Source of the DNA: Leucoraja ocellata
Lineage: Eukaryota
Assembly (NCBI GenBank): GCA_036785375.1
Contig: JAWMAR010000384.1
Span: forward strand, 868,001 to 932,000
DNA: 64,000 bases
Reading direction: 5' to 3'
In this document: piece by piece, positions 3,167-55,857 of the stretch
How the letters are laid out: each line of letters begins with the position of its first letter
How positions within the stretch are numbered: the stretch's first letter is position 1
Position numbers and translations under genes: made by a program
Notes under the pieces: model-generated
What the model was told of the DNA's origin: nothing
What the model saw: the letters and a program-made list of their open reading frames with translations, nothing else
Database searches by the model: none

Positions 3167-3489
3167 TCAGATACAGCTGGATCTCATGATATCTGTCTTA
3201 AGTGGGTTTGCCTGAGCCTGGTGTGTAACCACACAGGAGTAAAGGTCGTGTAAGTTCCAGTCTGAGGCTGTCAGAGTCAGGTAACTGCTGAGACTGAACG
3301 TGTTGTCCTTATCCTGCTGGATCGGGCTGGTCTCAACGTCGCTATTTCTTGCACTGCCGTCGACTGTCCATTCAACAGCCACCGAGCCCGGATTAAAGCC
3401 GTTCACCAAACACACCAGGGTGGCGGTGCCCTTTGAGGTAACTTCATCGGCTGAAGGCGGCAGGACCGTCACGATCGGTGCCCGAGGAT
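3167..3489 (-). CDS. IGLC: Ig light chain cluster 1, constant exon (lambda/type II-like)
   Basis: CAG acceptor; DPRAPIVTVLPPS...ATLVCLV..F.P...W...SSYLTL...YSCVVTH...RSSCI*; C1-set domain with penultimate Cys. Confidence 0.95.
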
Positions 3490-4310
3490 CTGTTTAATAA
3501 GAAGTCACATTTAATTGGAGAAATGCTGTCGTTGAGATATCATTATTTACCGAAAATACATCTCATTAAAGCACTCATTTATTCATTTACTAGAAATGCC
3601 GTTTCATTCTCGACCTATTTCAAACCATTATAGTGTGTTTATTTTAATTGGGTGAACAATAAATAAAGTGCGTGAAAGCAACTAAAATAGATCCTGTCTA
3701 CCCTCTGTATGAACACCGGGAAACCATCTGTGATAGATCATGGCTGCAGTATTTTATAAAACTGAATACATTATTATAACTTTTATAATGTTCATTTTCC
3801 TGCACATTTCCGGATTTACATTTATTTAAATATATCAGCAGATATAAACGATTCGCGGTCGCGACATTTATAATAACAGATTTAAACTTATTTAATTGTC
3901 GGCACCATTGAGATGGAGGGTGACGCTACTTAAGTTCGGCAAAAATATATGGAAGGCCACGGTCACCGATTCGCAGATATAGTTCACAAGCAAGAATGAC
4001 ATTGTAGTTCGAATGTCCATTTAAATTTGAAATACACGGCTGCGTCCACGAAAAGCTGCTCTACGTATTAAACACAATTTCTGAAGGAAATGTGCGAAAC
4101 TTTCTCCTTTCGCATTTGGCATTTTGATATCCTTGTTCAACCCGTCAACCGGATTTTTGACAGTGTTGAATATTGACGTTGGCGAAACCCGTTACCCAAG
4201 CAATTTCCTTTGATATGTGGGCAATCACTGCAAATATTTCCGCAATTTATTGAACGAAGCTCAAGACAAAGCATTAGCTCGCTTTCCCAGTCATTTCACT
4301 GAGTTATGGC

Positions 4311-4389
4311 CAAGTGAACTCGGAACATCTGTACAGCAAGATCGCACCATCTGCACTGAAATACAACTGGCCCAATCACGTATCATGTG
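4311..4389. promoter_or_regulatory. Candidate J-C intronic enhancer, cluster of five E-boxes
   Basis: CAAGTG, CATCTG, CATCTG, CAACTG, CATGTG within 79 bp; copies at 17841-17918, 29992-30070, 43507-43585, 55182-55260. Confidence 0.5.
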
Positions 4390-4471
4390 AACTCAGGACA
4401 TTAAATCAAGCAATATCTGCATTAAAACAAAAAGAAAACAGCGCGCTGTTCGAAGAATATATTTTACTTAC

Positions 4472-4816
4472 CGCCAATACTCAGCCTCGTTCCTTTACCG
4501 AAATATAAACCACTATCCCCTTTGGCACAGTAATAGTCAGCAGCATCCACCGATTGAACGCTAGATATTGCGAATGTTACAGAGCTGCCTGACACCGAGA
4601 TGGAAAACCGGTCTGGAATGTCCGTGCCTTTATAAATGCTGCCGCTGTAAGTATGGACGAATAGAAACTTGGGAGTTTTGCCAGGAATCTGTTGGTACCA
4701 CGAGACATAGTTAGCGCCCGAACTGGTACCCGATATGGTGCAGGGTATTTGTATGTTCTGTCCCGTAGAGGTGGACATCGAAGGCGGCTGAGTTACTGTA
4801 ACAGCCGCGCTTATGT
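4472..4816 (-). CDS. IGLV: Ig light chain cluster 1, germline-joined VJ exon
   Basis: Polypyrimidine-CAG acceptor; YISA/AVTVTQPPS...C...WYQQ...DAADYYC-AKGDSGLY-FGKGT; GTAAGT donor; V runs directly into the J FGxG motif. Confidence 0.95.
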
Positions 4817-4937
4817 CTGAGAAAGGAGAAATATCAGAAAAAAAAGAAAATTGTTAAGTTTGTTGAAGTGTGGGAGGTAACCCCAAATTAATGGTGAACA
4901 GAAATAAGTATAATGTCCAGGAAAGTAAAATACTCAC

Positions 4938-4986
4938 AAACTGCGCAAAACACCAACGCACCGACCACACGGATCCAATAAGACAT
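4938..4986 (-). CDS. Ig light chain cluster 1, leader exon (MSYWIRVVGALVFCAV)
   Basis: ATG at 4986, hydrophobic signal peptide, 49 nt then GTGAGT phase-1 donor; 121-nt intron to V exon. Confidence 0.92.
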
Positions 4987-5062
4987 GTTCATTAACCGAC
5001 TGAGCTCCGATGGGGCGGCAGTTTCCAGGACAAGTGGCGTGTAATCTTGCTCTCTGGCTCTC

Positions 5063-10419: not shown

Positions 10420-11505
10420 TGGAAATCCATCCAGTGATTTGGCCTCCACTGCCCTCTGTGGCAGGGAATTCCACAAATTCACAACTCTCTGGGTGAAAAA
10501 GTGTTTTCTCACCTCAGTCTTAAATGGCCTCAAAGATTGTGGCCCATGGTTCTGGACTGGCCCAGCATTGGGGACATTTTTCCTGCATCTAGCTTGTGCA
10601 GTCCTTTTTATAATTTTATATGTTTCTATATCCTTCTAAACTCCAGCGAATACAAGCCTAGTATTTTCAATCTTTCCTCATAGGACAGTCCCGCCATCCC
10701 AGGGATCAATCTCGTGAACCTACGCTGCATTGCTTCAATCACAAGGATGTCCTTCCTCAGATTAGGAGACCAAAACTGTACGCAACACTCCAGATGTGGT
10801 CTTACCAGAGCCCTATACAACTGCAGAAGAACCTCTTTACTCCTATACTGAAATTCTCTTCTTATGAAGGCCAACATTAGCTTTCTTCACTACCTGCTGT
10901 ACCTGCACGCTAACTTTCGGTGACTGGTGTACAATGACGCCCAGGTCTCGCTGCACCTCCCCCTTACCTAACCTAACCCCATAGAGATAATAATCTTCTC
11001 CCTTGTTGTTGCCGCCGAAGTGGATAACCTCACATTTATCTATATTATACTGCATCTGCCACGCATTTGCCCACTCACTCAACCTGTCCAGGTCACCCTG
11101 CAACCACCTAACATCCTCTTCACAGTTCACACTGCCACCCAGCTTTGTGTCATTAACAAAGGCTTTCTGAATGTCTAGATATACTAAATCCACTGGCTCC
11201 CCTTCATCCATTTTATTTGTCATATCCTCAAAAAATTCCAGAAGATTAGTCAAGGATGATTTCCCTTTCATACATCCATGTTGACTTGGACTAATCCTTT
11301 TACTGCTATTCAAATGCTCTATTATTACATATTTAATAATTGACTCCAGCATCTTTCCCACCACCGAAGTCAGGCTAACTGGTCTGTAATTCCCCGTTTT
11401 CTCTCTCACTCCTTTCTTGAAAAGTGGGATAACATTAGCTATCCTCCAATCCACAGGAACTGACCCTCAATGTATTGAACATTGGAAAAATGATCACCAG
11501 TGCGC
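10420..11505 (-). mobile_element. CR1-clade LINE RT fragment with internal deletion (paralogues ~23460-24728 and ~61955-62930)
   Basis: RT ORF 10843-11454 jumps from DIQKAF to DTKL. Confidence 0.85.
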
Positions 11506-13095
11506 CCGGATTTTTTCCATTACGTTAGAGATTTCACTTTGCATTCCAAGTATCCATTCCATAAATTTCGTCGTGTTTATGTACACATTTTTAATAAAAT
11601 CCTTCTCCCCCCAACCCACCAAATTAAAAAAAAAACAGCTCTCACCCATAGAATGTTGTTGAACGTTCCATCAATGCCCAATGCTCACAGATGTCCAATC
11701 GGAATGGATCAATTTACATATGCCTTTGCAGCAGCCCCAGCCCCAGCCCCTCCCCCCACCCCCGCAGCCAGTGTCGAAGCGCGTCATCACGTGTGTGGGA
11801 ATAGAGAAAGGGGATTGGGGGTCATAGGGAAAGGGGAACAGATGGACTTCCCTACCCCTCCCCCTTCCACTCTCCGTCCCACTATTTCCCCTCTCTCCCC
11901 CTAACCCTCTCCCCTCACTCCATACTCTCCCCCTCCCTCCCTTACCCCATCTCCCTCGTCCCCTCCCTCCCCAGTCTTACACTTATCTCCCCCACCCACC
12001 CCCCATCCCCCACTTCTCCCCATCTCCCTCCACCACCCCTCTCTCTCCCCCCTCCCTTGTCCCTCCCTCCCCACTCTTCCCCGTCTCTCCGCTCTCCCCC
12101 TCCATCCACATTTCCCCCCTCTCTACCCCCTACCCCTCTCCCCTCCCTCCACACTCTTCCATCTCTCCCTCCTCCCTCCCCTCCATCCTCCCCTCCCTCT
12201 CTCCTCTCTCCGCCTCTCCCATCATCTTCCTCTCCGCCCCACCCTCTCTCTCACCCCCTCCCACACCCATCTCCTCCTCCCTTTCCCCCTCTCTCCCCTC
12301 TCCCTCTCTCCTCACCCCCTCCCTCCTCCCCTCCAACGCCAACCCCCACCCCTCTCTAACCCACCTCTACCCCTACCCACCTCTGCCTCTTCCACCACTC
12401 CCCCTACCCCTCTGCCCATCTTCCGCACTCTTATCCTCCCCCTCCCTCACCACTATTCCCCCTCTCTCCCCCTCCCTCACCACTGTTCCCCCGCCCCCCT
12501 TCCACTCTCCCCCTCCCTCCACACTCTTCCCCCTCTCCCTCCTCCTTCCCCTACCTCCTCCCCCTCCTCCCTCCTCCTCCCTCTCTCCCCTTCCCCCACC
12601 CTTCTCTCCCCCTCCCCCACCCCTCTCTCATCCCCTCCCCCACCCCACCCCACTCTCCTCCTCCCCTTCACCCCTCTCTCCTCACCCTCTCCCTCCTCCC
12701 CTCCCACCCCTTCCTCACTTCTCTTAACCCCCATCTCCCCCCCACCCCCTCTCTCTTGCACCAATCCCCGCTATCCCTCTCCCACCCCCTACCCCCCCCC
12801 CCCCGTCCTGACCTCCCCGCTCTCCTCCCACTCCCCACTCTCCTCCCCCTTCCCATCCCCCTCTCTCTTCCCCTACCCCGCTCTGCTCTCCCTCCCAAAT
12901 CTCTCCCGTTTCCTCCTCCCCCTCTCCCCTCCCTACCCTCCCTCCCCTCTTCTTACCCACCCCCTCTCCCCACCCCGTCTCCCCCTCTCCCCCTCCCCTG
13001 TGTGTTTGGGGGGTGGTTAGTGTGAGTGTGTTGCCCCAGCCCCCCCCCCCCCCCCCTCTTCCCCCGCAAACGCGCGTTGGGGAAACTTGGTCTAG
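11503..13095 (+). mobile_element. 5'-deleted Helitron copy with expanded C-rich tract
   Basis: Homologous to 37980-38728; ends CTAG|T but the hairpin is deleted. Confidence 0.7.
11850..13000. repeat. C/T-rich polypyrimidine low-complexity tract
   Basis: About 1.1 kb of almost only C/T runs; shorter versions near 25095, 38340, 49985, 63300. Confidence 0.9.
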
Positions 13096-13365
13096 TATAA
13101 TATTAAAACTCTGTGGCTGGCTGCTGGCTGGCTGTGTTTCTGCCTGACTTGTGGTTCCAGCCCGTGGCTGCCAGCCTTTGATTCGTTGCTACGCCAACAC
13201 CAGACCCACAAACGCCTAGAATGTTTCCATTTCGGTAGAGATTTCACTTTCATTCCAAGTATCCTCTCCTGATTAAATTTCGTCGTGTTTATGTACACAT
13301 TTTAAATAAAATCCTTCTTCCCCGCCCCCTCCCCCGCCCCCCCAACGGGTCTGCACTTGGTCTAG
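13096..13365 (+). mobile_element. Short internally deleted Helitron copy in tandem (also 63693-63959)
   Basis: Same head sequence (ATTAAAACTCTGTGGCTGG...) and same CCCAACGGGTCTGCACTTGGTCTAG|T end. Confidence 0.7.
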
Positions 13366-16300
13366 TTTAAATTAAAACCACCTGTTCGGCAGTGGCAAAC
13401 CTGCCTGCCAGAATGCTGGTCCCCCGTCTGTTAAAGTGCAATCCGTCCCTTTTGTACAGTTCCCCCTTATTCCAAAACACATCTCAGTGGTCTAAGAATC
13501 TAAATCCCTGCCCCTGCACCTGTTCCTCAGCCATACATTCAGGTCCCGTATCTCCCTGTTCCTGCTCTCGCCAGCACGAGGAACTGGAAGCAAACCGAAG
13601 ATAACCATCCTGGAGGTTTCAGCATTTTCAGCAATTTTCCGAGTTCTCCAAAACGAAACAGACCTTAACCAACATTAGATACAACATGCTGGAGTGACTC
13701 AGCGGGACAGGCAACATCTCTGGACAGAAGGAATTTGTGACCTTTCCGGTCGAGACCCTGCTTCAGACCGGAAACGTCACCCATTCCTTCTATCTAGAGA
13801 CGTTTCCTGTCCCGCTGCGTTACTCGAGCATTTTGTATCGATCTTCGATTTAAACCAGCATCTGCAGTTCCTTCCTACACGTTAACTAACACTGTCGGTT
13901 TATTGAATCCCTATCCATTGATTTATTTTGGGGATTAATGTGTTGTTGGCCAGAAACTGCATCGATTTCCTATCCCTATCTTTTGCTCTAATACCCTTAG
14001 TGAAGATAAGTCGCTTTACTTAGGAGTCCAGGGCCGAAGTATTATATAATATAGTTTATTAAAGTAGGCGAGGGGACGTTTGAAGGGGCACACTTTGCAT
14101 GTCTTTTTTAAACAGAAAGTGTGCAACGCTTTGCTAGAAGAAGCGGTGTAAGTAGATACCCAGCAAGGTTCAAGAGGCATTTAGGCAAACACGTGAACAG
14201 ATAGGGAATGGAGGGATATAAACATTATATATGGCAGGCAGATGACATTGGCATTAGGTTCGCACAGACATTGTGGGCCATCGTGGATAGATCTGAAGTT
14301 ATGACACTGACATCGTGTTTAACAGCATTCACGCGGATGATGAGCGAGAGAGGGCCGACAGCATTTATACATGGCATGAGCGTAAGTTCATGATTTTCTC
14401 GCCGGTCCAGGCGCTCACACATAGACATCTTCGAAAGGCAACGGTAAAATATTGTAATGACATTACGAGACAGGAGAAAATGCGGCCTTTTGGGTCAGTA
14501 CCTGCCACAGAGGGCAGTGGAGGCCAAATCACTGGATGGATTTCAGAGAGAGTTAGAGCTCTAGAGGCTAGTGGAATTCAGGGAAGGCAGGCACGGGTTA
14601 TTGTTTGGGGCCGATCAGCCATGCTCTCATTGAATGGCGGTGCTGGCTCGAAGGGCCGAATGGCCTCCTTCTGCACCTATTTTCTATGTTTCTATGTTTC
14701 TATGAAAAGATTCAGAACAAATGTGACCCGATATCGATGACCAGGCAAAGGTGGAGCTCACAATGGATAACCAGGACACTACTGGAACGGAAGGAAAAGG
14801 CAAGGCCGGGAAGACTCAAATCTTTGTTTTTGGCTCCTTCATAAAAATTACAAGCCGCAGAAGAAATTGGGAAGAAAATGGGCATGATAATGGCAGCTCG
14901 AGAGTTATCGGAATTGTTTCCTTTGAACAGGGAATGTATAGTGGTGATTTGAATGAGGGGCATAGTCAAGGCGTTTGAATTGACCATTTTTTCCCGAGTG
15001 AAAGTAGGCTCAGTATTTACAGATTTAGAGGAATTGCCAAAATAACTAACGATCAGGTGAGCAATTGCAGATATGTGACCATTTATTCGAATCAGCAAAA
15101 AATGCATACAATCCGGATCATTTAGAAAAGATAAGACAAATAATGAGATCATGGCTGAAATTTACAAAGTTCTTAGGGGGTTGGACAGGCTAGATGCAGG
15201 AAGATTGTTCCCGACGTTGGGGAGGTCCAGGATAGGGAGTCACAGTTTAAGGAAAGGAGGGAAATCTTTTGGGACCGAGATGAGGAAAACATGTTTTCAC
15301 ACATCTCTGGAATCTCTGGAACTCTCTGCCACATAAGGTAGTTGAGGCCAGTTCATTGGCTATATGTAAGAGGGAGTTAGATGTGGCCCTTGTGGCTAAA
15401 GGGATCAGGGGGTATGGAGAGAAGGCAGGTACAGGGTACTGAGTTGGATGATCAGCCATGATCATATTGAAAGGCGGTGCAGGCTCGAAGGGCCGAATGG
15501 CCCACTTCTGCACCTATTTTCTATGTTTTTATGTTTCTATAAAGCTGGAGTAAATTAACGGGTCAGACAGCATCTCTGGAAAAAAATGAATAGATGACAT
15601 TTCGGATCGAGACCTTTCTTCAAACAGGCTGAAGAAGGGTCTCGCCCCAAAACGTCACCGATTCCTTTTCTCCAGAGATGCTTTCTGACCCGCTGATTTA
15701 CTCCAGATGTTTGTGTCTATCTTTGCTTTAAACCAGTATCTGCAACTCCTTCCCATTCATTAAGACTTAAGCCCAGGTTGCTCATGTAACGTGAAAATAA
15801 TTGGGAATAAAGCTTGGAATAAGTGAAAAGCGATTTGTGGCAGAGGTCAGGGGTTTGTCCGTGACTGATTGTCCTCTAACTATAGCATATAGTTACCTCA
15901 TTGTTCACTATTAACCCCGCCCCCGTCCTATTCTCACTCCCCCCCCCCCCCCCCCCTCTCTCTCTCTCTCTCTCCCACCCCTCGCTCTCTTTCTGCTCGT
16001 GTCTATATGAAGCTGCCGTGCACTCATCGCATCTTTCTGTAGATATTATCTTGCATTATTGAGAGTGTTGTTACCCAGTTCCAGTGTAATACCACCGTGA
16101 GACACGTACACGCCACATACAAACTCAGTGGCAGTTCTGCTAACGCCAATAATCACCCCGTTTCTTTAAAGCTGACAGTATTTAAAATCAGAAGAAATAA
16201 AGAAGAAATAAGGTGTAATGTTTGTAAATATTTAAATACAAACCCCGTCACCGATTAGTGTGAAGGTCACGGTCTTCTGTGATGAAGGATGGAGGTGCCA

Positions 16301-17034: not shown

Positions 17035-17315
17035 TCATAAAGCCGGGTGTTTAACCACACAGGAGTAAAGGTCGTGTAAGTTCCAGTCTGAGGCTGTCAG
17101 AGTCAGGTAACTGCTGAGACTGAACGTGTTGTCCTTATCCTGCTGGATCGGGCTGGTCTCAACGTCGCTATTTCTTGCACTGCCGTCGACTGTCCACTCA
17201 ACGGCCACCGAGCCCGGATTAAAGCCGTTCACCAAACACACCAGGGTGGCTGTGCCCTTTGAGGTAACTTCATCGGCTGAAGGCGGCAGGACCGTCACGA
17301 TCGGTGCCCGAGGAT
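17035..17315 (-). pseudogene. IGLC: Ig light chain cluster 2, 3'-truncated constant exon (probable pseudogene or atypical chain)
   Basis: Ends YSCVVKHPAL*; ~176-bp deletion removes the last beta strand, terminal Cys, native stop and part of the 3' UTR. Confidence 0.8.
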
Positions 17316-18000
17316 CTGTTTAATAAGAAGTCACATTTAATTGGAGAAATGCTGTCGTTGAGATATCATTATTTACCGAAAATACATCTCATTAAAGCAC
17401 TCATTTCTTCATTTATAGAAATGTCGTTTTATTCTCGACCTATTTCAAACCATTATAATGTGTTTATTGTAATTGGGTGAACAATAAATAAAGTGCGTGA
17501 AAGCAACTAAAATAGATCCTGTCTACCCTCTGTATAAACACCGGGAAAACATCTGTGATAGATCATGGCTGCAGTATTTTATAAAACTGAATACATTATT
17601 ATAACTTTTATAATGTTCATTTTACTACACATTTCCGGATTTACATTTATTTAAATATATCAGCAGATATAAACGATTCGCGGTCGCGACATTTATAATA
17701 ACAGATTTAAACTTATTTAATTGTCGGCACCATTGAGATGGAGAGTGACGCTATTTAAGTTCGGCAAAAATATATGGAAACTAGTCTTCGAAGGCCACGG
17801 TCACCGATTCGCTTTCCCAGTCATTTCACTGAGTTATGTCCAAGTGACTCGGAACATCTGTACAGCAAGATCGCACCATCTGCACTGAAATACAACTGGC
17901 TCAATCACGCATCATGTGAACTCAGGACATTAAATCAAGCAATATCTGCATTAAAACAAAAAGAAAACAGCGCGCTGTTCGAAGAATATATTTTACTTAC

Positions 18001-18372
18001 CACCAATACCCAGCCTCGTTCCTTTACCGAAATGGAAACCACTATCCCATTTGGCACAGTAATAGTCAGCAGCATCCACCGATTGAACGCTAGATATTGC
18101 GAATGTTACAGAGCTGCCTGACACCGAGATGGAATAACGGTCTGGAATGTCCGTGCCTTTAGAAATGCTGCCGCTGCTAGAATAGTAGAATAGATACTTG
18201 GGAGTTTTGCCAGGAATCTGTTGGTACCACGAGACATAGTAAGCGCCTGAACTGGTACCCGATATGGTGCAGGGTATTTGAATGTTCTGTCCCGTAGAGG
18301 TGGACATCGAAAGCGGCTGAGTTACTGTAACAGCCGCGCTTATGTGAGTTACTGTAACAGCCGCGGTTATGT
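18001..18372 (-). CDS. IGLV: Ig light chain cluster 2, germline-joined VJ exon with in-frame 27-bp duplication
   Basis: Open frame, splice sites intact; 372 nt = 345+27; CDR3 AKWDSGFH. Confidence 0.9.
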
Positions 18373-41700: not shown

Positions 41701-42350
41701 TTTTTTTAAACAGCCTGAAACGTCTAATCTATTTCTCACTTCCCACATACCGCCGGACTTACTCAGTATGAACAGTATCTTCTGTTTATTTCTGTGATAA
41801 TTTCGGGTTTAAGACCACCTTTGCCCTGCTTGGTTTATACGGTTCTTTCGCTGAATCATGTTGCACAAGAACTGACAAAGCGCTGTAGAACACGTGGTAT
41901 AAATGGACGAGTGGCCCACTACTGCTGTACGATTGTAATTAGTGATTGAAATAGAGAAAGAAAATCAGTGTTGCTAGCTCAAATCTACGAGACAACGCAA
42001 CCCGTGTTAAGCCATCATGGTTCGGGTCATAAATAAAACTGAGGGAATCAACAATGCATTTGAAATGCGTTTTTTAAACTTTATTCAACGGCTACAAAGA
42101 TACCATGGGTACAATAACAACATCCATGCTGTTGGATAACGCAATTAAATCTACTTGATGCTTCATTCAAGAACGACATTCTTTCGAAAGAACTACATTT
42201 AAAGTGAACAAGTCATAAAAATCGAAGTTTCAACTACAAATGGCATTTCTGAACGAAATCACTGAAGTCCAATACATTACTAACTTTGTCACATGGACGA
42301 ACCCAATGATGATAAACTAACTTAGTCAGGTCAGCCTCACGTTTCCAACA

Positions 42351-42673
42351 TCAGATACAGCTGGATCTCTCGATATTTGTCTTAAGTGGGTTTGCCTGAG
42401 CCTGGTGTGTAACCACACAGGAGTAAAGGTCGTGTAAGTTCCAGTCTGAGGCTGTCAGAGTCAGGTAACTGCTGAGACTGAACGTGTTGTCCTTATCCTG
42501 CTGGATCGGGCTGGTCTCAACGTCGCTATTTCTTGCACTGCCGTCGACTGTCCACTCAACGGCGACCGAGCCCGGATTAAAGCCGTTCACCAAACAAACC
42601 AGCGTGGCTGTGCCCTTTGAAATAACTTCATCGGCTGAAGGCGGCAGGACCGTCACGATCGGTGCCCGAGGAT
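42351..42673 (-). CDS. IGLC: Ig light chain cluster 4, constant exon
   Basis: 323 nt, intact, ends RSSCI*. Confidence 0.95.
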
Positions 42674-43659
42674 CTGTTTAATAAGAAGTCACATTTAATT
42701 GGAGAAATGCTGTCGTTGAGATATCATTATTTACCGAAAATACATCTCATTAAAGCACTCATTTATTCATTTATAGAAATGTCGTTTTATTCTTGACCTA
42801 TTTCAAACCATTATAATGTGTTTATTTTAATTGGGTGAACAATAAATAAAGTGCGTGAAAGCAACTAAAATAGATCCTGTCTACCCTCTGTATAAACACC
42901 GGGAAACCATCTGTGATAGATCATGGCTGCAGTATTTTATAAAACTGAATACATTATTATAACTTTTATAATGTTCATTTTACTACACATTTCCGGATTT
43001 ACATTTATTTAAATATATCAGCAGATATAAACGATTCGCGGTCGCGACATTTATAATAACAGATTTAAACTTATTTAATTGTCGGCACCATTGAGATGGA
43101 GGGTGACGCTATTTATGTTCGGCAAAAATATATGGAAACTAGTCTTCGAAGGCCACGGTCGCCGATTCGCAGATATAGTTCGCAAGCAAGAATTACATTG
43201 TAGTTCGAATGTTCATTTAAATTTGAAATACACGGCTGCGTCCACGAAAAGCTGCTCTACGTATTAAACACAATTTCTGAAGGAAATGTGCGAAACTTTC
43301 TCCTTTCGCATTTGGCATTTTGATATCCTTGTTCAACCCGTCAACCGGATTTTTGACAGTGTTGAATATTGACGTTGGTGAACCCCGTTACCCAAGCAAT
43401 TTCCTTTCATATGTGGACAATCACTGCAAATATTTCCACAATTTATTGAACGAAGCTCAAGACAAAGCATTAGCTCGCTTTCCCAGTCATTTCACTGAGT
43501 TATGGCCAAGTGAACTCGGAACATCTGTACAGCAAGATCGCACCATCTGCACTGAAATACAACTGCCCCAATCACGTATCATGTGAACTCAGGACATTAA
43601 ATCAAGCAATATCTGCATTAAAAGAAAAAGAAAACTGCCGATGAATATATTTTACTTAC

Positions 43660-44004
43660 CGCCAATACCCAGCCTCGTTCCTTTACCAAAATGTAAACCA
43701 CTATCCCATTTGGCACAGTAATAGTCAACAGCATCCACCGATTGAACACTAGATATTGCGAATGTTACAGAGCTGCCTGACACCGAGATGGAAAAACGGT
43801 CTGGAATGTCCGTGCCTTTATAAATGGTGCCGCCGGTAGTATGGACGAATAAAAACTTGGGAGTTTTGCCAGGAATTTGTTGGTACCACGAGACATAGTT
43901 AGCGCCCGAACTTGTGCCCGATATGGTGCAGGGTATTTGAATGTTCTGTCCCGTAGAGGTGGACATCGAAGGCGGCTGAGTTACTGTAACAGCCGCGCTT
44001 ATGT
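43660..44004 (-). CDS. IGLV: Ig light chain cluster 4, germline-joined VJ exon
   Basis: 345-nt open exon; CDR3 AKWDSGLH. Confidence 0.95.
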
Positions 44005-44124
44005 CTGAGAAAGGAGAAATATCAGAAAAAAAGAAAATTGTTAAGTTTGTTGGAGTGTGGGAGATAACCCCAAATTAATGGTGAACAGAAATAAGTATAA
44101 TGTCCAGGGAAGTAAAATACTCAC

Positions 44125-44173
44125 AAACTGCGCAAAACACCAACGCACCGACCACACGGATCCAATAAGACAT
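44125..44173 (-). CDS. Ig light chain cluster 4, leader exon
   Basis: 49-nt leader, ATG and donor intact. Confidence 0.92.
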
Positions 44174-45329
44174 GTTCATTAACCGACTGAGCTCCGATGG
44201 GGCGGCAGTTTCCAGGACAAGTGGCGTGTAATCTTGCTCTCTGGCTCTCTTTATAAATGGAATGACGATATGTCACCGTGTGTTTAATTATCCAAACCAA
44301 TCAAACCGGTATGCTCGTCGAAGCCAATCAGAAATTGCCAGATTCTTCCTCAAAATATTCGCCCCTGTGAAACACGCAGGTCTTATTTTAGAGACTTGTG
44401 TTTCTAAAAAGCTTCATACATCCAGCAGAATGAAAAGGGTTGTCACAGTTGTCCCTTCTTTATAAATAAATAATCTATAATGTTCTGTATGAACCCCCCG
44501 CATATATACACTAAACAGATTGCGAGTTTTAAATATTATGTTCGGTAACTGTTTAATCAACAATGAAAACGGAATGGAAATATTTTATCTAAAAGGACCA
44601 ACTGAATCCGTATCGCTGATTTCCTTCGCTCCCTCACCCGCTGAGTTTCTCCAGCATTTTTGTCTACCTCCGTATCGCTGAACATAACATGATAACAGTC
44701 ACAGCATCAGCATTATTTTATTTAAAAAGCACATTAAATCTATATTTAGATATCTTTGTCATTTTAGAAATAATTAACCCCACAGACTGCCCTTCTACTT
44801 GTGTATCAGATCATTTAGAAAGGACCTGGGGAGACAGAACATCACTACAGATGTCAGTAAAGTTGCAGTTTTGGAGGCAACTTAGACTACCCGATGTGTG
44901 TCGCGCTTGGAAAAGCGGTCTGTGATACTCTCGTATTGTAATGCGCAGTAATTCACGAAACTTGCCTCGACTCAAAGTTGAACGGTTGCCTGTAGCAAAT
45001 TAATGCATGTATGAGTGAAGTAAAAGGGGTCATATTGACTCTCACCGACCACTTCCAGAGTTATTTCGACTTTGTAGTACGACTGGACGACAGGAATTCT
45101 ACACACAGCACATCCATATTCAATTAAAGTTGAATAGAACACGAGCACTCCAGCTATCTGGCAAAACTGACAAGGGACAAACGCGAAGAGCGGTTTTCGG
45201 GAAATAGCGGGTGAGAAAAAGAATTACCACGAATAATTGTCCTTAAAGTGTCATTAAACTAGATTAGTTTAGCAGTGAACATGACTGGTCAGCGATCCAT
45301 TAACTTAACCGTTCATCCTTTCACCACTA

Positions 45330-45530: not shown

Positions 45531-47229
45531 GACTACAATATGTACCATCTACAGAATGAGCTGTAATTGCGCGCATAAGCCACTCTGAACGTTGGCATGT
45601 CACTACGACTAGCAAGTTTACCTAATGTTTATTTACACTGGTCCCTGCTCTCACCGTTCTCATCCTTCTCTCACTGCTGCACGTCTTAAACTTTGCAACG
45701 TGAACACGCGAAAGATTGCACTGGCTCATGGCTGCTCATTATTACCTCCCCAAACGCCGATCCGCAGAAGCTGCATGATGCCCCATAGAGACAAAGGGGG
45801 TCATAGAATCATAGAGAGTGGAAACAGGCCCTTCGGCCCACCTTTCCCACATCGGCCAACATGTCCCATCTACACTAGTCCCACCTGCCCGTATTGGGTC
45901 CATATCCCTCCAAATCTGTCATATCCATGTACATGTCTAACTGTTTTGTTAAACGTTTGGATAGTCCCTGGCACAACTACCTCCTCTGGCTGCTTGTTCC
46001 ATACACCCACCACCCTCTCTGAGAAAAAGTTACCCCTCAGATTCCTATAGAATCTTTGCCCTGTCACCATAAACCTGGTCCTCGATTCACCTACTCTGGA
46101 CAAGGGACTGTGCATCTACCCGATCTATTCCTCTCACGACCCTATACACCTCTATAAGATTTCCTCTCATCTTCGTGCGCTCCAAGGAATAGAGTCCCAG
46201 CTTATTCAACCCCTCCCAATACCTCAAACCCTCTAGTCACGGCAACATCCTCGAAAATCTTCTCTGTTCCCTTTCCAGCTTGTCGAAATCTTCCCTATAG
46301 GATGGTGCCCAAACTGAACACAATAATCTAAATGTGATGTCACCAACGTCTTATACATCTGCAACAAGACCTCCCAATCTCTATATTCATTACACGGGCT
46401 GATGAAGGCCAATGTGCCAAAAGCCTTTTTGACCACCCGATCTACCTCGACTGCATAGGTCCTACCCATGTTAAGCTTCCCAAAATAAAACACTTCACAT
46501 TCTGTGCATTATATTCCATCAACCATTCCTCAGCCTACCTGGCCAATTGATCCAGATCCTGCTGCACTTTTTCAAAACCATCTCCACTATCTGCAAAACC
46601 TCCCACGTTTGTATCTGTACTTTCAAAAATCCTTTGACAAGGTCCCACACAAGAGATGAGTGTGAACAATTAGAGCACATGGTATTGGGAGTAGGGTATT
46701 GACATGGATAAGGAACTGGTTGGCTGGCAGGAAGCAAAGAGAAGGAATTAATGGGTCCTTTTCAGAATGGCAGTCAGTGACCAGTGGGGTGTCGCAAGGC
46801 TCAGTGCTGGATCCCCAGTTATTTATAATGTATATTAACGATCTTGATTAGGGAATTATAAGTAACATTTCCAAGTTTGCGGGTGACACAAAGCTGGGTG
46901 ACAGTGTGAGGTGCGAGGAAGGTGGTATGGGGTTGTAGGGTGACTTGGATATAGGTTGGGTGAGCGGACTATGTCCCTCATTCAAATCGCCATTATACCT
47001 TCCCTGTTCAAAGGAACCAATTCCGATTACTCTCGAGCAGCCATGATCATGCCCAATTTCTTCTCAATTTCTTCTGCGGCATGTAATTTTTCTGACGGAG
47101 CCAACAGCAAACATTTGAGTCTTCCCGGCCATGCCTTTTTCTCCCGTTCCCCCAGTGTCCTGGTTGTTCATTGTGAGCTCCACCTTTCCCTGATCGTCGA
47201 TGTCGGGTCTCATTTGTTCTGAATCTTTT

Positions 47230-49497
47230 CATAGAAACATAGAAACATAGAAACTAGGTGCAGAAGGAGGCCATTCGGCCCTTCGAGCCAGCACCGCCAT
47301 TCATTGCGATCATGACTGATCGTCCCCAATCAATAACCAGTGCCTGCCTTCTCCCCATATCCCTTGATTCCACTAGCCTCTAGAGCTCTATCTAACTCTC
47401 TCTTAAAGCCATCCAGTGATTTGGCCTCCACTGCCCTCTGTGGCAGGGAATTCCACAAATTCACAACTCTCTGGGTGAAAACGTTTTTTTCTCACCTCAG
47501 TCTTAAATGTCCTCCAAGACTGCGGCACCTGGTTCTGGACTCGCCCAGCATTGGGAACATTTTTCCTGCATCTAGCTTGTGCAGTCCTTTTTATAATTTT
47601 ATATGTTTCCATAAGATATCCCCTCATCCTTCTAAACTCCAGCGAATACATGTCTAGTATTTTCAATCTTTCCTCATAGGACAGTCCCGCCATCCCAGGG
47701 ATCAATCTCGTGAACCTCCGCTGCATTGCTTCAATCACAAGGATGTCCTTCCTCAGGTTAGGAGACCACAACTGTACGCAATGCTCCAGATGTGGTCTTA
47801 CGAGAGCCCTATACCACTGCAGAAGAACCTCTTTACTCCTATACTGAAATCCTCTTGTTATGAAGGCCAACATTAGCTTTCTTCACTGCCTGCTGTACCT
47901 GCACGCCAACTTTCAGTGTACAAAGACGCCCAGGTCTCGCTGCACCTCCCCCTTACCTAACCTAACCCCATTGAGATAATAATCTCCTCCCTTGTTGTTG
48001 CCGCCAAAGTGGATAACCTCACATTTATCTATATTATACTGCATCTGCCACGCATCTGCCCACTCACTCAACATGTCCAGGTCACCCTGCAACCACCTAA
48101 CATCCTCTTCACAGTTCACACTGCCACCCAGCTTTGTGTCATCCACAAACTTGCTAGTGTTGCTCCTAATTCTCGCTTCCAAATCATTAATATATATGGT
48201 AAACAGTTGCGGCCTAAACACCGAGCCTTGCGGCACTCCACTCGCCACTGCCTGCCATTCTGAAAAGGACCCGTTCACTCCTACTCTTTGTTTCCTGTCT
48301 ACCAACCAATTTTCTATCCATGTCAACACCCTGTCACCAATACCATGTGCTCTAATTTTAGTCACCAGTCTCCCGTGCGGGACCTTATCAAAGGCTTTCT
48401 GAAAGTCTAGATACACTAAATCCACTGGCTCCCCTACATCCATTTTACTTGTCATATCCTCAAAAAATTCCAGAAGATTAGTCAAGCATGATTTCCCTTT
48501 CATACATCCATGTTTAGTTGGACTAATCCTTTTACTGCTATCCAAATGCTCCATTATTACATCTTTAATAATTGACTCCAGCATCTTTCCCACCACCGAA
48601 GTCAGGCTAACTGGTCTGTAATTCCCCGTGTTCACTCTCACTCCTTTCTTGAAAAGTGGGATAACATTAGCTATCCTCCAATCCACAGGAACTGATCCTC
48701 AATCTATTGAACATTGGAAAATGATCATCAGTGCGTCCACTATTTCTTGAGCCACCTCCCTGAGGAACCTGGGATGCAGACCTGCTTGGATTCCTTTCCA
48801 GTCTACCTTGGCCAGCTCCTCTCTCATGCCTTCATGGTCCCCTTTGTTCAACTGCATCACTGACACTTCCAATTTAACCTTCTCCTTCTCAAATTGCAGA
48901 TTGCAGATTAAAACCAATCATATTATGATTACGACCTCCAAGTGGTTCCATTACCTCGAGTTCTCTTATCAAATCTGGTTCATTAGACAACACTAAATCC
49001 AGAATTGCCGTTTCTATGGTCGTCTCCATTACAAGAGCTCTTAGAATCCATCTCGGAGGCACTCGGAGAGAGTTTGCAGAAACTCTCTTTCTTGGGATCC
49101 TGAACCAACCTGATTTCCCCAGTCTACCTGCATATTGAAATCCCCCATCACCACAGTGGCATTACCTTTGTTACATGCCAGTTTTAACTCCTGCTGCAAC
49201 TTACACCTTACATCCGGGCTACTATATGGGGGTCCGTAGATAACATCAATTAGTGTCTTCTTGCCTTTACAATTCCTCAACTCAATCCACAGTGCCTATG
49301 TCTTCCTTCGCAAGGGACTGAATCCCATCCCTCACCAGCAGAGTTACCCCACCCCTCCTCTGCCCACGTGCCTGTCCTTTCTTTTCCATAGGATGTATAA
49401 CCCTGAATATTGTTCCCAGACCCGATCCTCCTGCAGCCACATCTCAGTAATCCCCACAATGTCATATCTACCAACCTCTAACTGAGCCTCAAGCTCA
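47230..49497 (-). mobile_element. CR1-clade LINE, paralogous copy of 35573-37846
   Basis: Near-identical RT ORF 47913-48686 and endonuclease fragments. Confidence 0.9.
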
Positions 49498-50372
49498 TCT
49501 ATATCTATATTCTATATCTATATCTATCTATCTATATTTAAAACTCTGTGGCAGGCTGGCTGTGTGTGTTTCTGCCTGACTTGTGGTTGCCAGCCTTTGA
49601 TTCGTTGCTACGCCAACACCAGACGCAGAAACGCCCAGATGTTTTCCATTTCGGTAGAGATTTCACTAATCATTCCAAGTATCCACTGCATAAATTTCGT
49701 CGTGTTTATGTACACATTATTAATAAAATCCTTCTACCCCCGCCCCCCCCCCCCAATTAAAAAAAAAACAGCTCTCACCCATCGAATGTTGTTGAACGTT
49801 CACAATGCCCAATGCTCACAGATGTCCAATTGAATGGATCATTTACATATGCCTTTGCAGCAGCCCCAGCCCCAGCCCCTCCCCCCACCCCCCACCCCCC
49901 CAGCCTGTGTCGAAGCGCGTCATCACGTGTGTGGGAATAGACAAAGAGGATTGGGGGTGATAGGGAATGGGGAAGGGATGGACTGTCCCTACCCCTCCCC
50001 CTTCCACTCTCCCTCCCCACTATTTCCCCTCTCACCCCCACCCCTCTCCCCCTCCCTCCATACTCTTCCCCCTCCCTCCCCTACCCCATCTCCCTCCCCA
50101 CAACTCTCTCCCCCTCCCCTCTCTCCTCCCCTCACCACCCCTCTCTCCTCCTCCCTCTTCATCCCCCTCTCCTCACCCCACCCCCTCTCCCTGCCCTGCA
50201 CCCACCCCCCATCCCTCTCTCCCCCCCACCCCCCTCAATCTCTCCCCCCGCCCCCTACCCCTGTCCCTCTTCCACCACGCCCCTACCTCCTCTCCCCCCC
50301 TGCAGCGCCCCCCCCCCCCCCCCGCAAACGCGCGTTGGGGAAACAGACCCAACGGGTCTGCACTTGGTCTAG
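49498..50372 (+). mobile_element. Non-autonomous Helitron, full length
   Basis: A|TC start, hairpin 50344-50360, CTAG|T end. Confidence 0.8.
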
Positions 50373-53300
50373 TATAATATTAAAACTCTGTGGCTGGCTG
50401 CTGGCTGGCTGTATTTCTGCCTGACTTGTGGTTGCCAGCCTTTGATTCGTTGCTACGCCAACACCAGACCCACAAACGCCCAGAATGTTTCCATTCCGGT
50501 ACAGTTTTCACTTTTCATTCCATGTATCCACTCCTGATTACATTTCGTCGTGTTTATGTACATAGATTTAATAAAACCCTTCTCCCCTCCACTAACAGCG
50601 ACCATAACGGCTGCTGTCGCCCGCATCTCGGCTCAAAGGCGCCATTTAAAAACATCCGCACTGCTGAGTCCTGAACGGCTTGAGTTGGAGGACAACGTCT
50701 CCCGTGGGGGTCCATTGATTTATTTTTGGGGATTAATGTGTTGTTGGCCAGACACTGCATCGATTTCCCACCCCTATCTATTGCTCTAATACCCTTAGTG
50801 AAGATAAGTCGCTTTACTTAGGAGTAAAGTTTTCTGTCCAGGGCCGAAGTATTATATAAATATAGTTTATTAAAGTAGGCGAGGGGACGTTTGAAGGGGG
50901 CACACTTTGCATGTCTTTTTTAAACAGAAAGTGTGCAACGCTTTGCTAGAAGAAGCAGTGTAAGTAGATACCCAGCAAGGTTCAAGAGACATTTAGGCAA
51001 ACACGTGAACAGGTAGGGAATGGACGGATATAGACATTATATATGGCAGGCTGATGACATTGGCATTAGGTTCGCACAGACATTTGTGGGCCATCGTGGA
51101 TAGATCTGAAGTTATGACACTGATATCGTGTTTAACAGCATTCACGCGGATGATGAGCGAGAGAGGCCGACATCATTTATACATGGCATGAGTGTAAGTG
51201 CATGATTTTCTCGCCGGTCCTGGCGCTCACACATAGACATCTTCGAAAGGCAACGGTAAAATATTGTAATGACATTACGAGACAGGAGAAAATGCGGCCT
51301 TTTGGGTCAGTCTCAGCTTCTGTCAGATTAGCCCCCCCCCCCCCCCCCCCAGTTCCCAGTGGAGGCCAAATCACTGGATGGATTTAAGAGAGAGTTAGAG
51401 CTCTGGAGGCTAGTGGAATCAAGGGATTTGGGCAGAAGGCAGTCACGGGTTATTGTTTGGGGACGTTCGGTCATGATCTCATTGAATGGCGGTGCTGGCT
51501 CGAAGGGCCGAAAGGCCTCCTTCTGCACCTATTTTCTATGTTTCTATGTTTCTATGTCTCTATGAAAATATTCAGAACAAATGAGACCCGATATCGATGA
51601 CCAGGGAAAGGTGGAGCTCACAATGGATAACCAGGACACTACGGGAACGGAAGGAAAAGGCAAGGCCGGGAAGACTCAAACCTTTGTTTTTGGCTCCTTC
51701 ATAAAAATTACAAGCCGCAGAAGAAATTGGGAAGAAAATGGGTATGATAATGGCAGCTCGAGAGTTATCGGAATTGGTTCCTTTGAACAGGGAAGGTATA
51801 ATGGTGATTTGAATGAGGGGCATAGTCAAGGCGTTTGAATTGACCATTTTTTCCGAGTGAAAGTAGGCTCAGTATTTACAGATTTATAGGAATTTCCAAA
51901 ATAACTAACGATCAGGTGAGCAATTGCAGATATGTGACCATTTATTCGAATCAGCAAAAAATGCATACAATCCGGATCATTTAGAAAAGATAAGACACAT
52001 AATGAGATCATGTCTGAAACTTACAAAATTCTTAGGGGGTTGGACAGGCTAGATGCAGGAAGATTGTTCCCGACGTTGGGGAGGTCCAGGATAGGGGGTC
52101 ACAGTTTAAGGAAAGAGGGAACTCTTTTGGGACCGAGATGAGGAAAACATTCTCTGCCACAGAAGGTAGTTGAGGCCAGTTCATTGGCTATATTTAAGAG
52201 GGGGTTAGATGTGGCCCTTGTGGCTAAAGGGATCGGGGGTATGGAGAGAAGGCAGGTGCAGGATACTGGGTTGGATGATCAGCCATGATCATATTGAATG
52301 GTGGTGCAGCCTCGAAGGGCCGAATGGCCTACTTCTGCACCTATTTTCTATGTTTCTATGTTTCTATGTTTCTATAAAGCTGGAGTAAATTAGCGGGTCA
52401 GCCAGCATCTCTGGAGAAAATGAATAGGTGACATTTCGGATCGAGACCTTTCTTCAAACAGTCTGAAGAAGGGTCTCGCCCCAAAACGTCACCGATTCCC
52501 TTTCTCCAGAGATGCTTTCTGACCAACTGATTTACTCCAGATGTTTGTGTCTATCTTTGCTTTAAACCAGCATCTGCAGCTCCTTCCCATTCATTAAGAC
52601 TTAAGTCCAGGTTGCTCATGTTACGTGCAAATAATTGGGAATAAAGCTTGGAATAAGGGAAAAGCGATTTGTGACAGAGGTCAGGGGTTTGTCCGTGACT
52701 GATTGTCCTCTAACTATAGCATATAGTTCCCTCATTGTTCACTATTAACCCCGCCCCCGTCCTATTCTCACCCCCCCCCCCCCCCCCTCTCTCCCCCCCC
52801 CCCCCCCCCCCTCTCTCCCCCCCCCCCCCTCTCTCTCTCTCTCTCCCACCCCTCGCTCTCTTTCTGCATGTGTCTATATGAAGCTGCCGTGCACTCGTCG
52901 CATCTTTCTGTAGATATTATCTTGCTTTATTGAGAGTGTTGTTGCCCAGTTCCAGTGTATTACCACCGTGAGACACGTACACGCCACATACAAACTCAGT
53001 GGCAGTTCTGCTAACGCCAATAATCATCCCGTTTCTTTAAAGCTGACAATCAGAAGAAATAAAGAAGAAATAAGGTGTAATGTTTGTAAATATTTAAATA
53101 CAAACCCCGTCACCGATTAGTGTGAAAGTCACGGCCTTCTGTGATGAAGGATGGAGGTGCCATGCTTAGTGCGAGGGGTGTAAAGGGGAGGTGCGAACAA
53201 CCCATCAGTTTACATAAACCTGCTGATGTGTTGGGAATTAATGGCGTTTCCAAATTTCCAGATTTCCACGTATGCACACGTATTTTATTTAGTTATGTAG

Positions 53301-54025
53301 CGGTACACCTTGTGAACAAAGACATATTTAACAAACCCTGAACGCACGAGGCTGGTAGGGACGTTTTTGATTTTTTTTTTTTAAACAGCCTGAAACGTCT
53401 AATCTATTTCTCACTTCCCACATACCGCCCGACTTACTCAGTATGAACAGTATCTTCTGTTTATTTCTGTGATAATTTCGGGTTTAAGACCACCTTTGCC
53501 CTGCTTGGTTTATACGGTTCTTTCGCTGAATCATGTTGCACAAGAACTGACAAAGCGCTATAGAACGCGTGGTATAAATGGACGAGTGGCCCACTACTGC
53601 TGTACGATTGTAATTAGTGATTGAAATAGAGAAAGAAAATCAGTGTTGCTAGCTCAAATCTACGAGACAACGCAACCCGTGTTAAGCCATCATGGTTCGG
53701 GTCATAAATAAAACTGAGGGAATCAACAATGCATTTGAAATGCGTTTTTTAAACTTTATTCAACGGCTACAAAGATACCATGGGTACAATAACACCATCC
53801 ATGCTGTTGGATAACGCAATTAAATCTACTTGATGCTTCATTCAAGAACGACATTCTTTCGAAAGAACTACATTTAAAGTGAACAAGTCATAAAAATCGA
53901 AGTTTCAACTACAAATGGCATTTCTGAACGAAATCACTGAAGTCCAATACATTACTAACTTTGTCACATGGACGAACCCAATGATGATAAACTAACTTAG
54001 GCAGGTCAGCCTCACGTTTCCAACA

Positions 54026-54348
54026 TCAGATACAGCTGGATCTCTCGATAGTTGTCTTAAGTGGGTTTGCCTGAGCCGGGTGTTTAACCACACAGGAGTA
54101 AAGCTGGTGTAAGTTCCAGTCTGAGGCTGTCAGAGTCAGGTAACTGCTGAGACTGAACGTGTTGTCCTTATCCTGCTGGATCGGGCTGGTCTCAACGTCG
54201 CTATTTTTTGCACTGCCGTCAACGTTCCATTCAACGGCCACCGAGCCCGGATTAAAGCCGTTCACCAAACACACCAGGGTGGCGGTGCCCTTTGAAGTAA
54301 CTTCATCGGCTGAAGGCGGCAGGACCGTCACGATCGGTGCCCGAGGAT
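54026..54348 (-). CDS. IGLC: Ig light chain cluster 5, constant exon
   Basis: 323 nt, intact, ends RSSCI*. Confidence 0.95.
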
Positions 54349-55342
54349 CTGTTTAATAAGAAGTCACATTTAATTGGAGAAATGCTGTCATTGAGGTATC
54401 ATTATTTACCGAAAATACATCACATTAAAGCACTCATTTATTCATTTATAGAAATGTCGTTTTATTCTTGACATTTTTCAAACCATTATAGTGTGTTTAT
54501 TGTAATTGGGTGAACAATAAATAAAGTGCGTGAAAGCAACTAAAATAGATCCTGTCTACCCTCTGTATAAACACCGGGAAACCATCTGTGATAGATCATG
54601 GCTGCAGTATTTTATAAAACTGAATACATTGTTATAACTTTTATAATGTTCATTTTACTACACATTTCCGGATTTACATTTATTTAAATATATCAGCAGA
54701 TATAAACGATTCGCGGTCGCGACATTTATAATAACAGATTTAAACTTATTTAATTGTCGGCACCATTGAGATGGAGGGTGACGCTATTTAAGTTCGGCAA
54801 AAATATATGGAAACTAGTCTTCGAAGGCCACGGTCACCGATTCGCAGATATAGTTCACAAGCAAGAATTACATTGTAGTTCGAATGTTCATTTAAATTTG
54901 AAATACACGGCTGCGTCCACGAAAAGCTGCTCTACGTATTAAACACAATTTCTGAAGGAAATGTGCGAAACTTTCTCCTTTCGCATTTGGCATTTTGATA
55001 TCCTTGTTAAACCCGTCAACCGGATTTTTGACAGTGTTGAATATTGACGTTGGTGAACCCCGTTACCCAAGCAATTTCCTTTCATATCTGGACAATCACT
55101 GCAAATATTTCCGCAATTTATTGAACGAAGCTCAAGACAAAGCATTAGCTCGCTTTCCCAGTCATTTCACTGAGTTATGGCCAAGTGAACTCGGAACATC
55201 TGTACAGCAAGATCGCACCATCTACACTGAAATACAACTGGCCCAATCACGTATCATGTGAACTCAGGACATTAAATCAAGCAATATCTGCATTAAAATA
55301 AAAATAAAACAGCGCGCTGTCCGATGAACATATTTTACTTAC

Positions 55343-55687
55343 CGCCAATACCCAGCCTCGTTCCTTTACCGAAATATAAAGCACTATCCCATTTGGCACA
55401 GTAATAGTCAGCAGCATCCACCGATTGAACGCTAGATATTGCGAATGTTACAGAGTTGCCTGACACCGAGATGGAAAAACGGTCTGGAATGTCCGTGCCT
55501 TTATCAATGGTGCCGCCGGTATAATGGACGAATAGATACTTGGGAGTTTTGCCAGGAATCTGTTGGTACCACGAGACATAGTTAGCGCCTGAACTGGTAC
55601 CCGATATGGTGCAGGGTATTTGTATGTTCTGTCCCGTAGAGGTGGACATCGAAGGCGGCTGAGTTACTGTAACAGCCGCGCTTATGT
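55343..55687 (-). CDS. IGLV: Ig light chain cluster 5, germline-joined VJ exon
   Basis: 345-nt open exon; CDR3 AKWDSALY. Confidence 0.95.
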
Positions 55688-55808
55688 CTGAGAAAGGAGA
55701 AATATCAGAAAAAATTAGAAAATATTAAGTTTGTTTAAGTGTGGGAGATAATCCCAAATTAATGGTGAACAGAAATAAGTATAATGTCCAGGGAAGTAAA
55801 ATACTCAC

Positions 55809-55857
55809 AAACTGCGCAAAACACCAACGCACCGACCACACGGATCCAATAAGACAT
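55809..55857 (-). CDS. Ig light chain cluster 5, leader exon
   Basis: 49-nt leader, ATG and donor intact. Confidence 0.92.

Follow-up and report, generated by a model that had tools for sequence, protein, structure and literature searches.

The 64,000-nucleotide stretch of Leucoraja ocellata DNA analysed here (the window) very probably carries five tandem skate lambda (type II) light-chain genes in which V is already fused to J, four of them intact and one broken, which derive by amplification from an old join. Joined lambda clusters of cartilaginous fish have been known since the 1990s and are a textbook system, of which we take the window to be a real and ordinary example. The portions available of two papers describe lambda genes as germline-joined in all cartilaginous fish species studied (PMC5192425, PMC4279169). 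The joined state is the normal condition of the lambda isotype in these animals and no surprise.

Organisation of the array

Five leader–VJ–C clusters lie head-to-tail on the minus strand, with first ATG codons at 4992, 18548, 30673, 44179 and 55863 (copies 1-5) and ATG-to-ATG spacings of 11.7, 13.5, 12.1 and 13.6 kb. The first-pass annotation had recognised the five clusters and their head-to-tail order; its spacing of 12-13 kb does not hold strictly, and it missed the truncated C exon of copy 2 and the homology that runs to both window edges. The first ATG is followed 6 nt further on by another in the same frame, which in copy 5 falls at 55857, where the array had previously been taken to end. 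The stop codon of copy 1 ends at 3167. The features are as follows.

1-3166, no strand: spacer downstream of copy 1; its homology with 25390-27963 continues as far as the window edge
3167-3489, minus strand: copy 1 C-lambda exon, coding part
4472-4816, minus strand: copy 1 fused VJ exon, CDR3 AKGDSGLY
4938-4992, minus strand: copy 1 leader exon
17035-17315, minus strand: copy 2 C exon, truncated by deletion, with an early stop and without the terminal Cys
18001-18372, minus strand: copy 2 fused VJ exon, CDR3 AKWDSGFH; starts with a 27-bp in-frame tandem duplication
18494-18548, minus strand: copy 2 leader exon
28836-29158, minus strand: copy 3 C-lambda exon; splice joint 29158/30153 in RNA contigs
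30153-30497, minus strand: copy 3 fused VJ exon, CDR3 AKWDSGIY
30619-30673, minus strand: copy 3 leader exon; splice joint 30497/30619 in RNA contigs
42351-42673, minus strand: copy 4 C-lambda exon
43660-44004, minus strand: copy 4 fused VJ exon, CDR3 AKWDSGLH
44125-44179, minus strand: copy 4 leader exon
54026-54348, minus strand: copy 5 C-lambda exon
55343-55687, minus strand: copy 5 fused VJ exon, CDR3 AKWDSALY
55809-55863, minus strand: copy 5 leader exon
55864-64000, no strand: spacer upstream of copy 5; its homology with the other spacers continues as far as the window edge

In all five copies the leader exon is 55 nt long and is followed by a GT-AG intron of 120-121 nt. The single VJ exon measures 345 nt (372 nt in copy 2) and the GT-AG intron between J and C 982-994 nt (685 nt in copy 2); a C1 exon is present in each cluster, and Pfam V-set and C1-set domains were matched for copy 3. 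Copies 1, 3, 4 and 5 each show the complete anatomy of a minicluster (a split leader, a V-set domain with a J motif, one C1-set exon with a terminal Cys, and phase 1 GT-AG introns), such that four of the five copies are intact. In copy 2, about 176 bp at the end of the C exon and in the 3'UTR are replaced by 7 bp, which introduces an early stop, with loss of the last strand and of the terminal cysteine. This copy also carries the tandem duplication at the start of V and a 308-bp intron deletion, and is probably a pseudogene. Public runs X2 and X4 contain other letters across the copy 2 deletion, and neither confirm nor refute it in the source individual.

The spacers are homologous to one another as far as the window extends: 1-2552 matches 25390-27963 at the left edge and 63594-64000 matches 13013-13406 at the right. 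Because this homology reaches both edges, the array probably comprises more than five copies, and the match at the right edge suggests a sixth copy beyond it, upstream of copy 5.

Junctions, joined state and expression

The five CDR3s (AKGDSGLY, AKWDSGFH, AKWDSGIY, AKWDSGLH and AKWDSALY in copies 1-5) are exactly those first reported, and all five junctions are 24 nt long. Scanning both strands of the window for heptamer/nonamer pairs returned 10 weak matches, compared with a mean of 8.75 (range 4-13) in 20 base shuffles, with none inside the VJ exons or at the V-J junctions. The exon map thus bears out the original description of in-frame V-J fusions that lack recombination signals and keep their leader and J-C introns. 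A processed retrocopy origin was also considered and rejected, as it had been before: both introns are kept in 5/5 copies, whereas a retrocopy would have lost its introns and would carry a poly(A) tail.

In run X15, one 769-nt contig spans leader, VJ and C and lacks the two predicted introns of 121 and 994 nt, and both splice joints recur in run X16, from a separate study; the RNA status of these two runs was itself read from their splice joints. In run X22, the J-C intron is missing from a further 38 raw polyA reads. These RNA matches are 85-99% alike and come from other individuals or species, and are evidence at the level of the family, not of the copy. The joined form was found in four other runs from four studies, in X2, X4 and X8 as contigs that link the J-C intron through J to V, and in X5 as one contig across the V-J junction. 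Together, the spliced family transcripts and the joined form elsewhere support the view that the genes are real, expressed and inherited, with their 'germline' status resting on sharing among copies, individuals and species.

Isotype and relatives

An orthologous family, annotated as 'immunoglobulin lambda-1 light chain-like', is present in L. erinacea (XP_055511137/139/140/141/142) and A. radiata (XP_032899424-433), with AKWD CDR3s and clustered on one chromosome. Seven of these automatic annotations were compared with copy 3, reaching up to 97% identity in V and 95-97% in C; none of the seven matches a window V exactly, the best agreeing at 105/108 residues. The C domain of copy 3 is 97% identical to that of XP_055511140 from L. 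erinacea and 92% to A. radiata. It is 65-67% identical to two sandbar shark lambda proteins; for three members of a more remote clade, which we read as sigma-type, the identity is 48-50%. Classical lambda (type II/NS3) clusters, such as sandbar shark AAA86749 and AAC59643 and L. erinacea AAA59379, share the leader-VJ-C minicluster and the genomic V-J fusion and have C domains 63-67% identical. In a PDB search, the best 60 of 12,854 matches were antibody constructs and name no cartilaginous-fish chain.

The lambda (type II) assignment is made by similarity, and no labelled type I protein was among the matches listed. The skate type I (sigma-2) genes also form many joined, expressed clusters with replacement changes concentrated in the CDRs, as the available part of Anderson et al. 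1995 (PMC2192082) describes. That study, by library screening and PCR, counted at least 89 clusters of what is a different isotype. That the window genes belong among them is very unlikely: their C domains are 63-72% identical to classical lambda proteins, including those of sandbar shark, and interleave with them in a quick C tree, and the close relatives in L. erinacea share a 33.3-Mb contig, judged by its length of 33,294,918, with the classical lambda model XP_055511526. More indirectly, the accession numbers of the sawfish relatives XP_051887740-745 adjoin XP_051887747, which the accessible part of PMC12227049 uses as a lambda reference.

Age and origin of the join

AKWD-type proteins number 19 in a set of 167 (5 Leucoraja, 13 Amblyraja and 1 Rhinoraja), and in 19/19 the CDR3 has 8 residues. 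Together with the window copies they form one V clade (100/99), divided into two subclades that each contain Leucoraja and Amblyraja members. The join would therefore predate the window array, since the junction is common to three skate genera. The AKWD(S) residues are probably V-encoded, which leaves CDR3 length and the last three residues as the main evidence for a shared join. The claim that a single join was amplified into the array thus stands as regards one joined ancestor, but the join was not the array's own event. The array itself may be young, as the five copies are compatible with a single clade in an AU test (p=0.15).

The closeness of the copies (VJ 1.7-6.4%, J-C intron 1.6-2.9%) and the AU result would also suit a recent, local join, in which a single RAG event, in a germ cell of this species' lineage, gave rise by amplification to the window array. 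The 8-residue AKWD-type CDR3s of the 19 proteins, and those in runs from other organisms, largely refute this very improbable account; the duplications may be young, the join not. Neither is it at all likely that the copies were created by the assembly, or that they are somatic rearrangements present in lymphocyte DNA, a reading we practically discount. No contig from the other runs spans a whole stretch, but independent somatic joins could not yield five adjacent clusters that have private indels yet agree in junction length, and copies duplicated falsely would be almost the same, where these differ by 2-7%. Related skate assemblies moreover hold sets of 5 and 13 such models, each on one chromosome, consistent with the earlier view that the array is not artefactual. 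A VJ exon that was never split, as a relic of a single-exon state before the RAG transposon inserted, is highly unlikely. The window scan found no RSS remnants and the lineage may reach chimaeras, but in bony vertebrates lambda genes rearrange by means of RSS, and the CDR3 lengths of classical lambda V genes vary (5, 8, 9, 11 and 12), as expected from several imprecise joins. Elasmobranchs do have the single-exon VJ relatives UrIg and UrIg2, according to the part of PMC12227049 available, whereas the joined kappa genes of nurse shark derive from split ones (PMC2193156).

We thus favour an old join of once-separate V and J. The fusion was likely a single germ-cell event far back in the ancestry, earlier at the least than the separation of Leucoraja, Amblyraja and Rhinoraja, and RAG probably cut and joined the DNA in its ordinary way. 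The case for RAG action in germ cells, to which the first-pass annotation referred, comes from the junctions of nurse shark kappa (NS4) genes, for which Lee et al. 2000 provide the model (PMC2193156), and would extend to the window lambda genes by analogy only. Those kappa genes likewise have in-frame germline joins and have fully lost their RSS. Joined and split kappa genes coexist, and some of the joins date back a few to tens of Myr, whereas the window genes have no split relative in view and a join older than the skate genera compared. A 12-13 kb unit, consisting of gene and repeat-rich spacer, would then have been multiplied by unequal crossing-over.

A lambda V lineage with a long CDR2

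The window V sequences fall not inside the classical type II V clade (96/93; WYWQKP, short CDR2) but in a sister clade with a long CDR2 (97/87). They are 47-51% identical to classical V; their CDR2 is longer by about 4 residues and their CDR3 has only 8-9 residues, and they may be regarded as a second family of V that shares this C. The long-CDR2 lineage spans sharks and rays, and possibly chimaeras, where the ratfish cDNA AAA59369 has the CDR3 GVWESGYV and a J ending RVGIG. With sigma-type outgroups in the tree this sequence falls outside both lambda clades, with a long-branch warning; without them it joins the long-CDR2 clade, with the alternative not rejected (p-AU 0.33). A literature search returned no description of two lambda V lineages or of the window array, and is weak evidence of novelty given that most subscription papers lay outside its scope.

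A tentative reading, which we consider rather unlikely, is that skates, rays, sharks and the ratfish AAA59369 share a second ancient lambda V lineage with a long CDR2 and a CDR3 fixed at 8-9 residues, in which one germline join has been kept. If so, a single V-J join would have been inherited and re-amplified for more than 400 million years and would rank with the oldest V(D)J recombination products still in existence, while inherited change restored diversity in CDR2. On this reading the lineage could even be the cartilaginous-fish counterpart of lambda-2 of ray-finned fish, of which PMC5985310 reports none found in cartilaginous fish. The wider interest for specialists lies in the long-CDR2 lineage and in how old its join may be.

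Implications for the repertoire

The pre-joined genes likely give B cells light chains that need no somatic V-J recombination. Of the RAG-independent repertoire first envisaged, this would hold for the light chain only; heavy chains still largely rearrange. The exclusion problem raised at the same time is real, and has long been recognised for all-joined isotypes. Restriction to one chain per cell would have to be controlled at transcription or by heavy-chain pairing, not by rearrangement. B cells able to skip RAG are discussed in the nurse shark kappa paper (PMC2193156). The additions made here are modest: the array spacing, one dying copy, patchwork exchange and copy-specific CDR2/CDR3 variants. 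The latter would let single-cell RNA sequencing count the pre-joined clusters used per B cell, a number that bears on exclusion without rearrangement.

Likely selection and exchange among the copies

Diversity would come from inherited differences concentrated in CDR2 and CDR3, to which somatic hypermutation presumably adds. Pairwise pN/pS values, from counts that are few and not independent, are 0.228/0.053 for CDR2 and 0.108/0.012 for CDR3, compared with 0.014/0.050 for framework and 0.019/0.065 for C; CDR1 has no replacement excess (0.014/0.131). Of the 18 variable residues, 12 lie in the CDRs, which make up 32 of the 114 codons (Fisher p=0.0002), and CDR2 and CDR3 are likely under diversifying selection.

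The copies, which carry private indels, have likely swapped sequence since duplication, and patches are likely still exchanged by gene conversion. The best five-copy tree explains 10/34 collapsed informative sites, against an expectation of 2-9 from parallel change. Clustering along the gene of sites with the same pattern is weak once neighbours are collapsed (6 versus 2.8 expected, p=0.056). The uncollapsed version of this mosaic test (p=0.0001) is inflated by neighbouring changes and was discarded, as was one that included misaligned DNA upstream of copy 4. The V of the Leucoraja protein P0068 groups with Amblyraja, but its C groups with Leucoraja and the window copies.

Organisation of the array

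By six-frame motif search and self-comparison, a unit of 12-13 kb is repeated five times in the window, and every repeat carries a single light-chain gene on the minus strand. Exon mapping gave the same plan for every copy (copies 1-5, the tandem leader-VJ-C genes): a 55-nt leader, an intron of 120-121 nt, a single VJ exon, a J-C intron and a C exon, with all ten introns across the five copies of the GT-AG type. This mapping, together with a check of the junctions, confirmed the five joined light-chain clusters reported in the first-pass annotation; the CDR3 sequences read there are exact in all copies, and the junctions are equal in length. No RSS was found at the V-J junctions, and the window contains 10 RSS-like pairs versus 8.75 expected by chance. 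Because the spacer of the unit extends up to both window edges, five would be a lower bound on copy number. Copies 1, 3, 4 and 5 encode a chain of 240 residues with the C-terminus SSCI, and copy 3 contains Pfam V-set and C1-set domains. Copy 2 is damaged:

17035-18548, minus strand: copy 2 with three lesions (C-exon/3'UTR deletion, V-start duplication, intron deletion)

The first of these lesions causes a premature stop after HPAL in the C exon; the others are a 27-bp duplication at the start of V and a 308-bp deletion that shortens an intron. The VJ reading frame is still open, and the CDR2 of this copy is the most divergent of the five.

Transcripts and the joined form

Eight of 23 listed public sequencing runs, from other individuals or species and with tissue unstated, were compared with the window. 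In run X15 a 769-nt contig extends from leader through VJ to C and lacks the two predicted introns; both splice joints are also present in X16, from a separate study. Among raw polyA reads of X22, 38 leave out the J-C intron and 10 leave out the leader intron; most first mates align to the plus strand. In X2, X4 and X8, contigs extend through J to connect the J-C intron with V, and one X5 contig crosses the V-J junction. For one set of runs no loose end is listed at this junction, the expected divergence point of a split gene, contigs being evidence of presence and not of absence. In X1 and X5 some J segments lead into a J-C intron that starts differently (loose ends at window 30135-30141); these come from related clusters outside the window.

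A search of the 400 bp preceding each of the five copies found no Ig octamer, with up to one mismatch allowed, and the window as a whole has no exact octamer. The roughly 260 bp preceding each ATG (e.g. window 30674-30933, minus strand) hold a pair of ATTGG (inverted CCAAT) boxes, together with a TATA-like motif about 78 bp before the ATG. The X15 and X16 RNA contigs both lose their match at 30721, some 30 bp downstream of the TATA-like motif, an end that cannot by itself prove a transcription start.

Isotype and age of the join

C-domain identity is 97% with a Leucoraja erinacea model, 92% with Amblyraja radiata and 87% with Rhinoraja longicauda, which marks the window as skate DNA; lambda-named sandbar shark chains reach 65-67%, and a distant clade that we labelled sigma-type from its features reaches 48-50%. 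From these comparisons, made with named lambda chains and our sigma-type clade, the window genes would be filed as lambda (type II). The L. erinacea relatives apparently lie on the same contig as a classical lambda model; cDNA AAA59379 belongs to the cluster of that model.

AKWD proteins make up 19 of the 167 homologues in the comparison set (5 L. erinacea, 13 A. radiata, 1 R. longicauda), all with a CDR3 of 8 residues, and together with the window copies they form one clade (support 100/99). Since both of its subclades contain Leucoraja and Amblyraja members, the join appears to be older than these genera. Monophyly of the five window copies was not rejected (p-AU 0.15). The first-pass interpretation holds in part; one exception is its view of the join as an event of this array, since the AKWD clade would place it before the skate genera.

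Change and probable exchange among copies

Replacement changes exceed silent ones in CDR2 and CDR3 and silent changes exceed replacements in framework and C; CDR1 showed no replacement excess in the five-copy comparison. Of the 34 informative sites, 10 fit the best five-copy tree, against an expectation of 2-9 under parallel change; this result points to sequence exchange between copies, although spatial clustering of the sites is weak (p=0.056). Placements of homologue P0068 in the V tree and the C tree (the latter a quick tree) conflict, as would be expected if C were homogenised within the genus. A 10-kb block (35235-45182 versus 46891-56850) joins copies 4 and 5 and their flanks at 97.3% identity, yet the copy 5 VJ is nearest to that of copy 3, with 1.7% divergence, which is indicative of a patchwork history.

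The spacers contain further repeats:

36181-37047, 47913-48698, 10843-11466 and 24068-24553, minus strand: RVT_1 (reverse-transcriptase) fragments, in 4 of 7 scanned frames
12015-13000, 25235-25310, 38214-38533, 49986-50255 and 63441-63572: C/T-rich low-complexity tract at the equivalent position in each spacer

The RVT_1 fragments are LINE-like by our reading, and the C/T-rich tract varies strongly in length among units. About 450 bp before copy 2 (18998-19040) lies a short repeat of very high copy number, probably a SINE/LINE tail; three runs give it contig depths from hundreds of thousands into the millions.

Proposed origin of the array

The window array belongs to a well-known kind of gene system. 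An old germ-cell join, with a role for RAG proposed by analogy, would have fixed the lambda VJ exon, and unequal crossing-over, possibly aided by the shared reverse-transcriptase-bearing spacer repeats, would have multiplied the unit. Gene conversion and selection on CDR2 and CDR3 may then have built a small inherited repertoire, which B cells would express by transcription and splicing of the joined genes without rearrangement.

A 2017 nurse shark paper reportedly took light-chain isotype exclusion as its subject. Shark heavy-chain exclusion is described in PMC2435157 as based on rearrangement and pairing. Anderson et al. 1995 (PMC2192082) report that skate has at least 89 joined type I clusters, which are expressed and whose replacement changes lie mainly in the CDRs. 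Lee et al. 2000 (PMC2193156) use nurse shark kappa junctions to infer that RAG acts in germ cells, and also discuss receptors independent of RAG; the accompanying commentary (PMC2193153) proposes preset neonatal specificities. PMC5985310, which gives isotype synonyms, reports that no lambda-2 was found in cartilaginous fish. A sawfish lambda accession and the UrIg genes were taken from PMC12227049.

Two lambda V lineages

Two V lineages occur on lambda C. CDRs were examined in 154 lambda-type proteins, 13 others being excluded as mammalian or outgroup. CDR2 is long (about 4 residues longer than in classical lambda V) in 75 of these, with a CDR3 of 8 residues (47) or 9 (28), and short in 66, with a CDR3 of 5, 8, 9, 11 or 12; CDRs of the remaining 13 were unparsable. 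The long-CDR2 lineage, to which the window copies belong, has members in skates, rays, sawfish, sawshark and sevengill, horn, basking, white, bamboo and cat sharks, the joined state outside skates being taken from gene models, not DNA. In a V tree of 38 rows, with CDR3 and J left out, it forms one clade with ratfish cDNA AAA59369 (97/87), a long branch for which the alternative was not rejected. We consider a join of great age in this lineage rather unlikely; the lineage itself, and how old its join may be, are the one lead worth pursuing.

At CDR3 position 3, copy 1 has Gly (window 4519-4521, minus strand) and all 75 parsed long-CDR2 relatives have Trp. In classical lambda genes a 5-residue CDR3 (YAART, FAART, FTAKT, KASDT etc.) recurs from chimaera to sharks and rays (homologues P0010, P0022, P0043, P0114, P0115, P0128, P0142 and P0150), a pattern that may likewise go back to a single, very old join.
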